Virus record (IMG/VR): IMGVR_UViG_2690316321_000005
Origin: a virus
Lineage: Duplodnaviria > Heunggongvirae > Uroviricota > Caudoviricetes
Strand: one strand, 5' to 3'
Length of the DNA stretch: 18,942 nt
The position numbers and the translations under genes were made by a program. Of the stretch, positions 7,229 to 17,497 are shown one piece after another. Positions within the stretch are counted from its first letter, which is position 1. Every line of letters begins with the position of its first letter. The notes under the pieces were generated by a model. The model worked only from the letters and a program-made list of their open reading frames with translations. It ran no database searches and had not been told where the DNA came from.

Positions 7229-7272
7229 TTATGAGTGTGAATTTAGTTTGTCTTTGATTTTTAACGGGAAAT

Positions 7273-7294
7273 AAAAAAAAGGGGCGAAAGCCCC
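7273..7294 (-). terminator. Intrinsic terminator downstream of the repressor gene
   Basis: Minus strand: GGGGCUUUCGCCCC hairpin then U8 (plus strand aaaaaaaaGGGGCgaaaGCCCC), abutting the c2 stop codon. Confidence 0.65.
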
Positions 7295-7945
7295 TTAAGG
7301 AAGGTTTGCTAGCTTGGCATCAACGACAACGCCAATGATTTTACAGTTCCCATTGATTTCAATCATTGGGTATTGTGGATTGAGTGGTTTCAGGAATTTT
7401 CTACCGGCATCAATAACTAACTTTTTGAATGTCGCCTCGTTTTCTCCTTCAAGTTTGGCGACTACCAGCTTTCCATTACGTGGTTCGACTTCTGGGTCGA
7501 CGAGAATAATCATCCCCTCAGGAATGCTCAGTCCTGCCTGGGCAGTCATTGAGTCGCCTTTAACGTCGAGCCAAAAAGAGTCTTCAGAACAATCTACCGT
7601 TGTGTCGTACCAGTTATCTATTGCACGCCTATGATATGGCTCTACAGCTTCCATCCAACATCCTGCGCTTACCCAGCTAATTAGAGGATACGAACCTCTT
7701 GGATCATGCCTGCTGTGATAGGCAATGTTTGAAAGACTATCCTCTCCTTTCAACAGGTAATCAGGGGAACACTGCAAAGCCTTGGCTAAGGCCAATAGGT
7801 TTTCGCCATTGGGCTCAGTTTCAGATCGCTCCCATTGGGAAATAGCAACATTAGACACGCCAACCATCTTGCCAAGGGCAGCCTGCCTAATCTTGAGTTC
7901 TTTTCTGCGAGCGCGAATACGCTCACCCATCAGTTGTGTATTCAT
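7295..7945 (-). CDS. c2: Prophage repressor, P22 C2-type (HTH N-domain plus LexA/S24-like autocleavage C-domain)
   Basis: 216-aa ORF MNTQLMGERIRARRKELKIRQAALGKMVGVSNVAISQWERSETEPNGENLLALAKALQCSPDYLL...GDSM...KL..., recognised as near-identical to P22 C2; divergent from cro across the operator region. Confidence 0.95.
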   Translation of the reverse strand: MNTQLMGERIRARRKELKIRQAALGKMVGVSNVAISQWERSETEPNGENLLALAKALQCSPDYLLKGEDSLSNIAYHSRHDPRGSYPLISWVSAGCWMEAVEPYHRRAIDNWYDTTVDCSEDSFWLDVKGDSMTAQAGLSIPEGMIILVDPEVEPRNGKLVVAKLEGENEATFKKLVIDAGRKFLKPLNPQYPMIEINGNCKIIGVVVDAKLANLP

Positions 7946-14118: not shown

Positions 14119-14303
14119 ACGCCACAATTCAAACGATACCAGAGCTTCTTATCCAGACACGAGGAGATCAGACCGAAGTGGCGAGGATGCTTTCCTGCGC
14201 AAGAGGAACAGTGCTCAAGTACAACCGAGACAGCAAAGGCGAGCGTCACGTAATAGTTAACGGCGTCCTGATGGTCAAACAGGGCAAGAGGGGAAGACCA
14301 TGA
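14115..14303 (+). CDS. ninH: NinH-like protein
   Basis: 62-aa ORF MNATIQTIPELLIQTRGDQTEVARMLSCARGTVLKYNRDSKGERHVIVNGVLMV...; parallels lambda NinH (..TIPDMLVEAYGNQTEVARRLKCSRGTVRKY...) as recalled. Confidence 0.7.
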   Translation: MNATIQTIPELLIQTRGDQTEVARMLSCARGTVLKYNRDSKGERHVIVNGVLMVKQGKRGRP

Positions 14304-14923
14304 GACTCGAAAGCGTAGCTAAATTTCACTCGCCAAAAAGCCCGATGATGAGCGACTCACCACGGGCCACGGCTTCTGACTCTCTTTCCGGTACTGATGT
14401 GATGGCTGCTATGGGGATGGCGCAATCACAAGCCGGATTCGGAATGGCTGCATTTTGCGGTAAGCACGAACTCAGCCAGAACGACAAACAAAAGGCTATC
14501 AACTATCTGATGCAATTTGCACACAAGGTATCGGGGAAATACCGTGGTGTGGCAAAGCTCGAAGGAAATACTAAGGCAAAGGTGCTGCAAATGCTCGCAA
14601 CATTCGCTTATGCGGATTATTGCCGTAGTGCCGCGACGCCGGGCGCAAGATGCAGAGATTGCCACGGTACAGGTCGTGCGGTTGATATAGCAAAAACAGA
14701 GCAGTGGGGGAGAGTTGTTGAGAAAGAGTGCGTAAGATGCAAAGGCGTCGGCTATTCAAGGATGCCAGCAAGCGCCGCATATCGCGCTGTAACGATGCTA
14801 ATCCCAAACCTTACCCAACCCACCTGGTCACGCACTGTTAAGCCGCTGTATGACGCTCTGGTTGTGCAATGCCACAAGGAAGAGTCAATCGCAGACAACA
14901 TTTTGAATGCGATCACACGTTAG
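14300..14923 (+). CDS. Q: Late gene antiterminator Q (lambda-type)
   Basis: 207-aa ORF MRLESVAKFHSPKSPMMSDSPRATASDSLSGTDVMAAMGMAQSQAGFGMAAFCGKHELSQNDKQKAINYLMQFAHKVSGKYRG... with zinc-binding CRDCHGTG...C..C.G, recognised as near-identical to lambda Q. Confidence 0.95.
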   Translation: MRLESVAKFHSPKSPMMSDSPRATASDSLSGTDVMAAMGMAQSQAGFGMAAFCGKHELSQNDKQKAINYLMQFAHKVSGKYRGVAKLEGNTKAKVLQMLATFAYADYCRSAATPGARCRDCHGTGRAVDIAKTEQWGRVVEKECVRCKGVGYSRMPASAAYRAVTMLIPNLTQPTWSRTVKPLYDALVVQCHKEESIADNILNAITR

Positions 14924-14965: not shown

Positions 14966-15010
14966 TTGACTTTTTGAATAACTTTGGGGAAACTTGACAC
15001 CAATAATGGG
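14966..15010 (+). promoter_or_regulatory. Late promoter pR' with overlapping qut region
   Basis: TTGACT (14966-14971), 17-nt spacer TTTTGAATAACTTTGGG, then GAAACT, closely paralleling the lambda pR' region TTGACTTATTGAATAAAATTGGGTAAATT as recalled. The -10 is degenerate relative to lambda. Confidence 0.5.
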
Positions 15011-15202
15011 CGTTTTTTACATGTCATTGATGAGTCTCAATAACCTGCCGCCGAGTAGTTTTTATGCTCTGAATTGTATTTGTGTAGTAAACATGCTGAC
15101 TGCAATGTAATAGAGTTTTTTTAGCCTGTAACCTCTTGACGGCATTGAATTGCTTTTGTTATGAGTTGTAAGCCAATGTTATCATCTTGTATTGGGGTGG
15201 TT

Positions 15203-15919
15203 ATGAAGGATGGTGCACTGCTCAGGAGTTCTTCACTTTTTATTGCCTACATGGGATGCCTTGGATGGGGGAGTGCTTATTTCTATGGATGGGGTACTTC
15301 TTTTTACTACGGCTTCCCATGGTGGATTGTAGGTGCAGGTGTTGATGATGTTGCCAGAAGTTTATTTTTTGCAGTTATCGTCATTGCTATATTTCTTATC
15401 GGTTGGGGTATTGGTGTTGTATTCTTTTTCGCAGTGAAAAGAAAACATTCTATGCAAGAGCTAAATGTATTTCGCCTTTATTTTGCTGTGGAATTATTGT
15501 TTGTGCCGGCAATTATTGAGTTTTCTATATTGAGACAGAAGATTCAGGTACCTCTTTTGCTACTGTCAGCAGCGATTGCGCTGGCGGTTACAATTTCGAT
15601 AAGATCTTATGGGCGATTTTTATCGGTATCATGCTTCTATGATAAGCCATTTATAAAAAAACATTTTTTTGAGATTGTGATGATTGCTTTTGTGGCATAT
15701 TTCTGGCTTTTTTCATTTCTGACAGGATATTACAAACCGCAGTTTAAGAAAGAATATGAAATGATTAATTATAATGATGGTTGGTATTATGTTCTTGCTC
15801 GTTATGATAATTGTCTGGTTTTGTCTACTTCTTTCAATGCAGGTAGTAAAAGGTTTGTCATTTATCAATCAGCACAAGATAAGAATCTTCAGGTTGATAT
15901 TGTAAGGACCAGAATTTAA
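15203..15919 (+). CDS. Hypothetical multi-pass inner-membrane protein (about 238 aa), AT-rich moron between Q and the lysis cassette
   Basis: The track ORF starts at 15161; ATG at 15203 is preferred because it has a G-rich SD (GGGGTGG) and lies downstream of a candidate extended -10 (TGtTATCAT, 15177-15185). The product has several long hydrophobic segments and aromatic-rich loops (GWGSAYFYGWGTSFYYGFPWWIV). Composition is clearly more AT-rich than Q or the lysis genes. Confidence 0.65.
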   Translation: MKDGALLRSSSLFIAYMGCLGWGSAYFYGWGTSFYYGFPWWIVGAGVDDVARSLFFAVIVIAIFLIGWGIGVVFFFAVKRKHSMQELNVFRLYFAVELLFVPAIIEFSILRQKIQVPLLLLSAAIALAVTISIRSYGRFLSVSCFYDKPFIKKHFFEIVMIAFVAYFWLFSFLTGYYKPQFKKEYEMINYNDGWYYVLARYDNCLVLSTSFNAGSKRFVIYQSAQDKNLQVDIVRTRI

Positions 15920-16349
15920 TTGGCTGCATAAATAATATTTTAAGTTGCAAGTTGGCTATTCGTAGGAATAGAACCTTAGGCATGCTGAATGCGTTTTCTG
16001 AACATTGTTTTATAAACTGTGTCTGCTTGCTGTTGTGATCCTGCTTTTAGTGATGGTGATGATGGATTTCACCAGCAGGATAATGTTGGTACTGACTGAT
16101 GGCGCTCTGGTCTGCGGCATTGTGGTATTGCTGTGGCCGATGATGAAAAAACAGAATGAATAATCCTTGACTTTTTTGTTTACTGTTTATTAAAAAATCA
16201 ACCGCATGGTGAATCCTCCTTGGAGGGGCTAAATGATCGAGTTTTAAGGGCACGTAGCGAGTTCTGTTTGATCATTGCAGAACTTAGCGGGAGGCGCCAT
16301 GCGTACATCACTAATGTTATTTCCTTCTATCATTTTCCTTGTGAGTTCT

Positions 16350-16377
16350 GGCTGCGCATGGCGCGGCCTTTTTTTTA
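16350..16377 (+). terminator. Intrinsic terminator in the Q-to-holin intergenic block
   Basis: GGCTGCGC-atg-GCGCGGCC (8-bp stem with one G-U pair) followed by T8. Confidence 0.55.
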
Positions 16378-16554
16378 TGACCTGCCACTGGCAGATGGTC
16401 ATCCTGTGATTTGATTCCGGTTCCGGCTTTTTAACTCTGTTCCTGTACACGGGAGAAATTCTATGTCGATTAATCGTTATGATATTGGTTACAAGAAGTA
16501 CCACGTATTGTGTTGAGATAGAAAGCCTGGTGCCAGAGGTAAATGCAGCAGCAT

Positions 16555-16605
16555 AATAAAAAAGAGCCAGCGCAGAAGAGAACGGGTAAAAGAGTCTGCG
16601 CTGGC
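16555..16605 (-). terminator. Intrinsic terminator oriented for leftward (minus-strand) transcription
   Basis: Perfect 11-bp stem GCCAGCGCAGA / TCTGCGCTGGC (16566-16576 and 16595-16605) with an 18-nt loop; the minus-strand transcript continues with UCUUUUUUAUU. No U-run follows on the plus strand. Confidence 0.5.
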
Positions 16606-16784
16606 GTGGGGATATTCCCCGTGGAGAAATGATATGTAACACACATCGGGAACCTTTCTATATAAACATTATCATTATTGTCAATCATAACAGTCAGGTA
16701 TTATGACGTTTATGCATCAGGGCCATCAGGAATTAACTGGTGGCTTTTTATTGTTGTCAGCTTCCGGATAACGGGAGACGGGGT

Positions 16785-17000
16785 ATGTACCAGATGGAAA
16801 AAATCACAACAGGTGTGTCATACACCACGTCAGCGGTGGGGACGGGATACTGGCTACTGCAGTTGCTGGACAAAGTCTCCCCATCCCAGTGGGTGGCAAT
16901 AGGCGTATTGGGTAGCCTGGTGTTTGGCTTGCTGACGTATCTGACAAACCTTTATTTCAAGATTAAAGAAGATAAGCGTAAGGCTGCGAGAGGTGAATAA
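16785..17000 (+). CDS. S: Class II holin / pinholin (phage 21 S-like) with dual-start motif
   Basis: Start at ATG 16785, internal to the track ORF, with GGGAGACGGGG SD. Product [71 protein letters not shown] (71 aa) has two TM segments and a charged C-terminus. Second start codon at 16794 (MEK..., 68 aa) gives the antiholin/holin pair. Confidence 0.85.
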
Positions 17001-17497
17001 TGTCGCCATCATTACGCAAGGCTGTTGCTGCTGCTATTGGTGGTGGGGCTGTTGCCATAGCGTCTGTGCTCATCACTGGTCCGAGTGGTGACGATGGCCT
17101 GGAAGGTGTCAGCTACATACCATACGAAGATATCGTTGGCGTATGGACTGTATGTCACGGACACACCGGAAAAGACATCATTCCCGGTAAAACGTATACC
17201 GAAGCAGAATGCAAAGCCCTCCTGAATAAAGACCTTGCCATGGTCGCCAGACAAATTAACCCGTACATCAAAGTCGATATACCGGAAACAACGCGCGGCG
17301 CTCTTTACTCGTTCGTTTACAACGTGGGCGCTGGTAATTTCAGAACATCGACGCTTCTTCGCAAAATAAACCAGGGTGATATCAAAGGCGCATGTGACCA
17401 GCTACGTCGCTGGACATACGCTGGCGGTAAGCAATGGAAAGGGCTGATGACCCGTCGTGATATTGAGCGTGAAGTCTGTTTGTGGGGGCAGCAATGA
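17000..17497 (+). CDS. R: SAR endolysin (T4-lysozyme-like muramidase, phage 21 R-like)
   Basis: 165-aa ORF with N-terminal signal-anchor-release segment [18 protein letters not shown] and lysozyme core (...[15 protein letters not shown]..., ...[27 protein letters not shown]...). Start overlaps the holin stop. Confidence 0.9.

Follow-up and report, generated by a model that had tools for sequence, protein, structure and literature searches.

A TfpB/STM1630-family gene for a predicted multi-pass inner-membrane protein as AT-rich moron cargo between Q and the holin of a lambdoid prophage

The stretch of DNA analyzed here, referred to as the window, comprises 18,942 nucleotides of a virus from the class Caudoviricetes (IMG/VR record IMGVR_UViG_2690316321_000005) and represents the left half of a lambdoid prophage. 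Between the gene of the late antiterminator Q and that of an S21-type holin lies a gap of 1862 bp. Inside this gap, a gene on the plus strand (15203-15919) encodes a 238-amino-acid protein of the TfpB/STM1630 family, predicted to reside in the inner membrane and 100% identical to CPT_434_68 of phage 434, a 'putative membrane protein' (UMO75332.1). The original prediction, made from the letters of the window, had described an open reading frame (ORF) of about 238 codons between the late promoter and the lysis cassette, and it is in this position that the gene was found. Its left neighbor Q (14300-14923, plus strand) is of the lambda type (PF03589 Antiterm, E 3.7e-57) and is annotated as 'antitermination protein' by the Prokaryotic Genome Annotation Pipeline (PGAP) in an identical E. 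coli locus. To the right lie the class II holin gene (16785-17000, plus strand; PF04971, Phage_holin_2_1, E 1e-32; 'class II holin family protein' in PGAP) and the gene of the phage lysozyme, or endolysin (17000-17497, plus strand; PF00959, E 4e-45; rrrD in PGAP).

The longest open frame spans 15161-15919 and would give 252 amino acids. The start is placed at the ATG at 15203, which is common to all homologues and is used by PGAP, yielding 238 amino acids plus a stop codon; a Shine-Dalgarno-like GGGGTGG precedes it at 15194-15200. The gene had been expected to be more AT-rich than its neighbors, and a window-wise calculation of guanine-cytosine (GC) content confirmed this. Its GC content is 0.363 (0.305 at third codon positions), compared with 0.511 for Q, 0.508 for the endolysin gene and 0.466 for the whole window. 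In fact, none of the 717-nt windows outside the Q-to-holin gap was as poor in GC (fraction 0.0; minimum there 0.371). Evolutionary rates were estimated from intact full-length homologues with 26-68% identity. The ratio of nonsynonymous to synonymous substitution rates (dN/dS) was 0.07-0.19 for enterobacterial pairs with an estimable dS and 0.38 for a distant Neisseria pair, with dS near saturation for many homologue pairs. On the strength of the enterobacterial values, the coding gene is taken to be real and under purifying selection. Two 8-residue repeats, GWGSAYFY and GWGTSFYY, are encoded by a 24-nt tandem duplication within the gene (15262-15309; 79% identity) and make up the motif best conserved in the family; the aromatic/glycine peptide quoted in the original prediction, GWGSAYFYGWGTSFYYGFPWWIV, corresponds to residues 21-43.

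The gene is part of a mobile cassette. A block at 15059-16487 (plus strand; GC 0.384) is ~98% identical to phage 434 (megablast, query 136-1564), and phage 2B8 matches the window from the Q stop codon onward. Phage mEp234 and the HK97-type phages have Q and the late promoter pR' in common with the window (90-92% identity over 14927-15003/15010); however, the distance from Q to the holin is ~435 bp in these phages as against 1862 bp in the window. Prophage contexts were counted in the best 80 of the 188 IMG/VR viral contigs that encode a relative, and all 80 encode a protein 100% identical to that of the window. To the left of the gene, a lambda-type Q was found in 46 of the 80 contigs and an unrelated Q82-type Q in 32 (lpxR in 31). 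To the right of the cassette, 38 contigs continue with the flank of the window type and 25 with a SASA esterase gene. Whatever the Q type or the right flank, the upstream block is present in all 80 contigs and a gene for a DUF3927 protein in 79. The gene is also common in complete E. coli genomes: 767 of 5426 (~14%) contain 80% or more of its length, with an identity of at least 99% in 679 of them, and the carriers include O157:H7 strains and enteropathogenic E. coli (EPEC) E2348/69. Within this set of 5426, lpxR-ylcG-Q82-gene was counted in 618 genomes and lambda-Q-gene in 572, many genomes carrying both.

Further evidence comes from phage 434B, where DLP12 DNA was reported to take the place of ~5.5 kb that include Q, late promoter and lysis genes. 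The gene falls within the non-homology interval annotated for 434B, a phage that is propagated and forms clear plaques. Because the gene lies in a region that is replaced in this viable phage, comparison and the literature indicate that it is dispensable for lytic growth. The proposal of a moron in the Q-to-holin slot is therefore supported: the insert is extra DNA relative to mEp234, deviates in GC content, recurs behind two unrelated Q types at the same junction of related prophages, has a terminator downstream of the gene and is missing from viable 434B. It is an AT-rich, horizontally mobile insert absent from close relatives. The gene is not new, being an already catalogued moron in a well-known cargo slot.

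The cassette holds more than the membrane-protein gene. A second cargo gene (16005-16163, plus strand) encodes a 52-amino-acid DUF3927/TciB-like small membrane protein (PF13064, E 1.4e-14; phrog_1470 'TciB-like') and is annotated as TciB in phage 434. An obligate pairing of the two genes was considered and rejected, as DUF3927 is absent beside all divergent homologues and occurs alone in phage Evi. Next, a candidate for an STnc100-like small RNA (sRNA) was found at 16174-16379 (plus strand), matching Rfam RF02076 over positions 1-206 of 206 with 37.7 bits (gathering score 47) and E 1e-6. A TTGACT box (16168-16173) stands just upstream of it, and the candidate ends in the cassette terminator, a stem at 16350-16368 followed by U8 (-15.2 kcal/mol), which is the first strong terminator downstream of the gene. 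This element, similar to a family of Hfq-type sRNAs, is probably the third cargo element of the cassette. A weak Esr41-like candidate lies on the minus strand at 16556-16645 (RF02676, positions 1-74 of 74, 32.3 bits, gathering score 102, E 3e-4). It keeps the seed-like CAUUUCUCCA-GGGG stretch of this enterohemorrhagic E. coli (EHEC) sRNA and has a 25-nt insertion in the terminator loop. Two ORFs have been annotated in this area, a 132-amino-acid 'hypothetical protein' in PGAP (16244-16642, minus strand) and a 64-amino-acid 'putative membrane protein' in phage 434 (16220-16414, plus strand). Since both overlap the terminator and the sRNA-like elements, they are probably not genes. Phages carrying Shiga toxin (Stx) genes have tRNA genes in the Q-to-holin slot; none was found in the Q-to-holin gap of the window.

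Several signals bear on how the gene could be transcribed. The pR'/qut-like late promoter region (14966-15010, plus strand) aligns with that of mEp234 and has 90-92% identity to the annotated pR'/qut of HK97-type phages, from which homology it is inferred to work as a promoter in the window. It consists of a -35 box TTGACT (14966-14971), a 17-nt spacer and a -10 box GAAACT (14989-14994), followed by a -10-like AATAAT pause element. The -10 box of mEp234 reads TAAATT, and the two substitutions in the window, which include the first T, may weaken the late promoter. A search between pR' and the gene for terminator-like sites, including a canonical tR', returned only a decayed remnant at 15045-15063 (plus strand; -2.2 kcal/mol, U5, no better than shuffled sequences). 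The counterpart in phage 434 and O157:H7 (2982-3007 of locus record L001) has -13.3 kcal/mol, U8 and a z score of -3.8. Because the upstream terminator is decayed, pR' transcripts could reach the gene without Q, provided that the altered -10 box still works.

A promoter of the gene's own is suggested by comparison of homologues. The best-supported candidate (15136-15165, plus strand) has a -35 box TTGACG (15136-15141), an 18-nt spacer and an extended -10 box TGtTATGAG (15157-15165). A TTGAC box and a TGnTAtG-like box with equal spacing were found upstream of the homologues from enterotoxigenic E. coli (ETEC), an island of uropathogenic E. coli (UPEC) type, a Stx-like prophage and C. rodentium. 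In these four lineages the coding regions are 57-68% identical with dS near saturation, and the upstream regions have otherwise diverged. For these reasons 15136-15165 is considered the best promoter candidate. The original prediction had proposed instead a promoter with the -10 box TGtTATCAT. The sequence TGTTATCAT is indeed present at 15177-15185, as part of a possible promoter at 15156-15185 (plus strand; TTGTTA, 18 nt, TG-extended TATCAT) that scored nine of twelve matches plus the TG. It is weak alone, promoter-like matches in the region being as frequent as in shuffled sequence, and it would give a leader of only ~10 nt that begins inside the GGGGTGG at 15194-15200.

The family to which the protein belongs is narrow and already labeled. 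The original prediction could not assign the gene to any family; labels do exist, and all of them are of unknown function. The homologue searches found 108 proteins, all of which, including the 100% identical one, carry the precomputed annotation PF27470 'TfpB', a label from a model newer than the local Pfam copy. An ORF in the pilin-inversion region of Moraxella bovis/lacunata is called tfpB and may be the source of the Pfam name, although no Moraxella protein was among the homologues retrieved. In PGAP the identical protein, WP_001299184.1, is called an 'STM1630 family protein', and the match to phrog_1521 (E 2e-154) leads to a PHROG of unknown function. Among 50,697 phage records, the protein is encoded only by 434 and 2B8 (three records). 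A scan of species-representative genomes, a set in which E. coli is a single genome, gave five loci. When 1.84 billion representative proteins were searched exhaustively with a profile, 75 clusters at 50% identity matched, among them distant relatives of full length from Neisseria, Avibacterium, Gallibacterium, Actinobacillus, Pasteurella, Mannheimia, Klebsiella electrica and Mangrovibacter. The genes are AT-rich in every host (GC 0.29-0.43). A 3-kb contig from a Veillonella metagenome-assembled genome bin (JAIITD010000172.1) carries the 100% identical gene together with the DUF3927 gene and is almost certainly a binning contaminant.

A structural model was obtained with AlphaFold. The first run, on 25 close homologues, gave an unusable model with a predicted local distance difference test (pLDDT) score of 58. 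Distant relatives were added, and the resulting 30-sequence alignment gave a pLDDT of 81 and a predicted template modeling (pTM) score of 0.74. The model contains five helices (6-36, 47-78, 89-111, 116-136 and 149-181) and a five-strand beta domain (187-232), and hydropathy agrees with transmembrane helices TM2-TM5. The several hydrophobic helices with Trp/Tyr/Gly-rich loops of the original prediction thus reappear as five transmembrane helices in the model. In 30 of 30 family members, Lys and Arg are concentrated in the N-terminus and in loops 2 and 4 (8.3 on average) and scarce in loops 1 and 3 (0.8), and by the positive-inside rule the topology is predicted to be N-in/C-out. The duplicated GWGxxxFY aromatic/glycine motif lies at the outer end of TM1, and DDVARSLF is the start of TM2. 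Given the N-in/C-out topology, all conserved elements, namely the GWGSAYFY/GWGTSFYY repeat, the GFPWW loop, DDVARSLF and the beta domain, are predicted to lie on the periplasmic side.

This architecture is kept from Enterobacteriaceae to Neisseria and Pasteurellaceae, each time with the TM1 aromatic/glycine motif, four more transmembrane helices and the C-terminal beta domain, whose core YYVL...LILS is common to the family alignment. Across homologues the ends of the protein are conserved and the central transmembrane region is variable. Only A15, A25, Y26, G37, G175 and Y195 are invariant or near-invariant in the wide alignment. Polar residues of a catalytic type are not conserved across the wider family, which hints at a non-enzymatic role.

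Searches for relatives of known function were negative. Local Pfam and NCBIfam scans gave no family match for the protein alone and, for 30 members of the wide alignment, scattered single-member matches at E > 0.001, none of them consistent. A profile search against all PDB sequences gave no match at E <= 10. MscS-like mechanosensitive channels have a weak structural resemblance (a transmembrane helix followed by a small beta domain) with no significant fold or sequence match. No holin family in Pfam matched the protein, in contrast to the neighboring ORF with its Phage_holin_2_1 match. The original prediction had named three findings that would speak against it, and the opposite was found for each: no housekeeping or phage structural family was matched with confidence, the GC content differs from that of the flanks, and transmembrane helices are predicted. 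The family is structurally orphan, with a confident predicted fold and no detectable structural or sequence relatives.

The genomic contexts of the homologues are diverse. On porcine ETEC plasmids (locus records L004-L007), a homologue with 59% identity is divergent from eltAB, the genes of the heat-labile enterotoxin, at a distance of ~870 bp; it lies near estB (STb) and is flanked by insertion sequences (IS). IS-flanked homologues were also found on Shigella plasmids (106 records), including the virulence plasmid (pINV) pWR501 of S. flexneri (L027), where a homologue with 57% identity occupies 6001-6717. Just downstream, at 7257-7673 of pWR501, a 138-amino-acid ORF has a signal-peptide-like N-terminus and no Pfam match. 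In the Salmonella chromosome the homologue lies in an islet and adjoins the effector gene sseJ. It was identified as STM1630 because a published deletion primer encodes the N-terminus of the homologue, and STM1630 has been placed between steB and sseJ. C. rodentium has a homologue at the same chromosomal locus, beside lpxR. In Stx-like E. coli prophages the gene stands between a methyltransferase gene and a nanS-p-like esterase gene, next to lpxR and pmrD, and in a UPEC-type island it is found beside iroBC and bor. Members from Avibacterium, Neisseria and Pasteurella stand alone among housekeeping genes, and the locus differs from genus to genus. Because no neighbor is conserved across these contexts, a family member probably works without a dedicated partner.

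The gene for the lipid A deacylase LpxR recurs among the neighbors. It was found at most ~1.5 kb from the gene in three arrangements, once with pmrD: lpxR(-)-ylcG-Q-gene(+) in phage 434 and O157:H7, gene(+)-lpxR(-)-pmrD in the Stx-like prophages, and lpxR(-)-gene(+) in C. rodentium. In the locus records, lpxR lies at 810-1769 (L001), 1667-2626 (L029), about 5970-6919 (L014-L016) and 3863-4823 (L013).

STM1630 is the only family member with experimental data. It was reported to be bound by H-NS, to be expressed inside macrophages and in medium inducing Salmonella pathogenicity island 2 (SPI-2), and has been grouped with the SPI-2 virulence regulon. Moreover, signature-tagged STM1630 mutants were reported as attenuated in calves and chickens.

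From this evidence, a lysogenic-conversion role is regarded as the probable explanation, short of a firm one: the gene would encode a protein of the envelope, made in the lysogen and from the late transcript, which acts on the periplasmic side of the inner membrane and is of use to the bacterium in animal-associated niches. Within the lysogen, transcription would start at the gene's own conserved sigma-70-type promoter at 15136-15165, and in the prophage of the window read-through from pR' may reach the gene as well, the upstream terminator being decayed. During lytic growth the gene would be read a second time, on the Q-antiterminated late transcript. Because the gene is so AT-rich, it is probably silenced by H-NS and induced by host cues, like the Salmonella homologue. 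The protein itself would probably be a non-enzymatic binding or scaffolding factor at the periplasmic face of the inner membrane, benefiting the bacterial host in animal-associated niches and not the phage. Among the functions on which the original prediction had speculated, lysogen or host fitness is thus favored and modulation of lysis disfavored, because the family also occurs outside phages.

A number of observations weigh against this explanation. The hydrophobicity of TM1 is not strong by hydropathy, and the predicted periplasmic position of the beta domain depends on the positive-inside rule as well as on a TM1 that does cross the membrane. The label 'non-enzymatic' is an argument from absence. 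Promoter-like matches in the region are no more numerous than in shuffled sequence (5 found versus 5.6 expected). The published record of STM1630 is mixed. A clean deletion did not reduce replication in macrophages, which was slightly increased in strain 4/74; two single-nucleotide polymorphisms in the -10 box silence the gene in all sequence type 313 (ST313) isolates tested; and S. Typhi lacks it. A cassette-insertion screen had pointed to hypermotility, but this phenotype is missing from those that re-testing confirmed. The copy in UPEC strain CFT073 is a pseudogene. The STM1630 phenotypes are weak or inconsistent, and in view of this inconsistency, the ST313 inactivation, the S. Typhi absence and the CFT073 pseudogene, any benefit is conditional. 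In addition, the association with virulence loci may in part reflect hitch-hiking in AT-rich hot spots and databases biased toward pathogens.

Superinfection exclusion or anti-phage defense was weighed as an alternative. Here the inner-membrane protein would block DNA entry or trigger abortive infection, in the manner of HK97 gp15, P22 SieA or T4 Imm. Such a role would suit a prophage moron that has promoter-like and terminator signals and whose predicted multi-pass inner-membrane product turns its conserved parts to the periplasm; a great many E. coli prophages carry the cassette, and AT-rich islands also gather defense genes. However, a search with the 5027 defense models of PADLOC matched 0 families at E <= 1. 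Homologues are carried on virulence plasmids and, in Pasteurellaceae and Neisseria, as single conserved genes among housekeeping genes, and the Salmonella homologue is SPI-2-regulated and macrophage-induced instead of constitutive. An exclusion function is therefore considered unlikely.

It is also conceivable, if quite unlikely, that the protein is an orphan immunity protein that protects lysogens in the gut against a toxin acting on the membrane or periplasm, such as a pore-forming colicin, a contact-dependent inhibition (CDI) toxin or a type VI secretion system (T6SS) effector. A single, partner-less, AT-rich gene scattered among mucosal Gram-negatives (Enterobacteriaceae, Pasteurellaceae and Neisseriaceae) would fit this idea, as would an inner-membrane protein whose conserved surface is turned towards the periplasm and whose variable central transmembrane region is framed by conserved ends. 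The family of the neighboring gene is annotated as TciB-like, 'resistance to colicin'. Nevertheless, no toxin gene adjoins the gene in any context examined, and no known immunity protein resembled the protein in sequence or fold. The 100% identity of the protein across at least 80 prophage contigs is also unlike the diversification of immunity genes.

The proximity of lpxR raises a further alternative, in which the protein would be an accessory of envelope or lipopolysaccharide (LPS) remodeling that works with LpxR or other lipid A/LPS modification functions. The three arrangements described above, the first of them in 618 complete E. coli genomes, speak in its favor. EHEC lpxR is a known virulence gene under the control of Ler and Pch, and the conserved parts of the protein would face the periplasm. 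On the other hand, lpxR is absent from the window and from the examined Salmonella, ETEC, Shigella, Pasteurellaceae and Neisseria contexts. The adjacency can be explained by shared hot-spot cargo, and no biochemical link is known. The LPS proposal is considered very unlikely. Finally, an antiholin-like or accessory modulator that tunes holin triggering or envelope disruption is highly improbable, for although a membrane protein encoded between pR' and an S21-type holin is necessarily co-transcribed late, most family members are far from lysis genes, 434B and most lambdoid phages with the same S21-type or other lysis cassettes do without the gene, a strong terminator and ~400 nt with two sRNA-like elements separate it from the holin, and a protein of 238 amino acids with five transmembrane helices is unlike known holins and antiholins.

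The lysogenic-conversion explanation can be extended to the family as a whole, although this extension is speculative and unlikely to hold in full. The TfpB/STM1630 proteins would then be an unrecognized group of structurally novel, single-gene envelope factors, spread by phages, plasmids and islets specifically among animal-associated Gram-negative pathogens and altering the cell surface or its defenses in infection from the periplasmic side of the inner membrane. As examples, they may enable lipid A remodeling by LpxR or confer immunity to a membrane-active agent of the host or a competitor. Taken by itself the gene of the window is ordinary; the value lies in the picture of a family that is narrow, structurally orphan, strikingly invariant in E. 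coli prophages and found beside hallmark virulence genes of several major enteric pathogens. If an effect on the envelope, phage resistance or colonization proved true, a function would be gained for a gene that roughly one complete E. coli genome in seven carries. Phage 434 and EPEC E2348/69 offer tractable systems for the function of the family.

The remainder of the window is laid out as follows. An integrase gene (1-1062, minus strand) and a cI-like repressor gene (7295-7945, minus strand) are followed rightward from the repressor by O and DnaB-type replication genes, the nin-region genes and Q. Beyond the lysozyme gene come a spanin-like ORF and then a Rha regulator. The other AT-rich stretch of the window, 5600-6800 with a GC content of about 0.36-0.40, holds a 227-amino-acid ORF in the early-left region (5573-6256, minus strand) that matches Nmad5, nucleotide modification associated domain 5, with E 5e-71.

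Comparison with known systems places the gene more precisely. Its experimentally studied homologue, STM1630 of Salmonella Typhimurium, resembles the window protein in length (238 amino acids), shared motifs, a GC content of 0.37 and 46% identity over 100% of the length (E 1e-70). The STM1630 gene is, however, chromosomal, lies outside a prophage and has a different upstream region and promoter. TciB of phage P1, a DUF3927 protein, is a small membrane protein unrelated to that of the window, although a gene of its family shares the cassette in 79 of 80 contigs; its 'colicin/cell division' label is annotation only. The classical morons, including lambda bor and lom, HK97 gp15, and the stx and heat-labile enterotoxin type II (LT-II) genes between Q and S, are likewise deviant and dispensable inserts. 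As in these cases, the window insert has promoter-like and terminator signals as flanks and occupies a known cargo slot. This is a comparison of genetic roles and not of protein families, as the window protein has no sequence or structural relation to Bor, Lom, gp15 or the toxins and is not a toxin, an outer-membrane protein or a lipoprotein. In Stx phages the stx genes sit between Q and S, and one homologue, that flanked by the methyltransferase and nanS-p-like esterase genes, occupies the stx position.

The closest counterparts are the genes of phage 434, O157:H7 and EPEC E2348/69. These encode a 100% identical protein in a DNA block that is ~98% identical and includes the DUF3927/TciB gene and the terminator, the ORF in 434 being annotated from nine codons earlier (247 amino acids). 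In phage 434 and O157:H7 the slot likewise lies between Q and an S21-type lysis cassette. There, it is preceded by a Q82-type Q, a strong terminator and an upstream lpxR, whereas in the window the same cargo follows a lambda-type Q, pR' and a decayed terminator.

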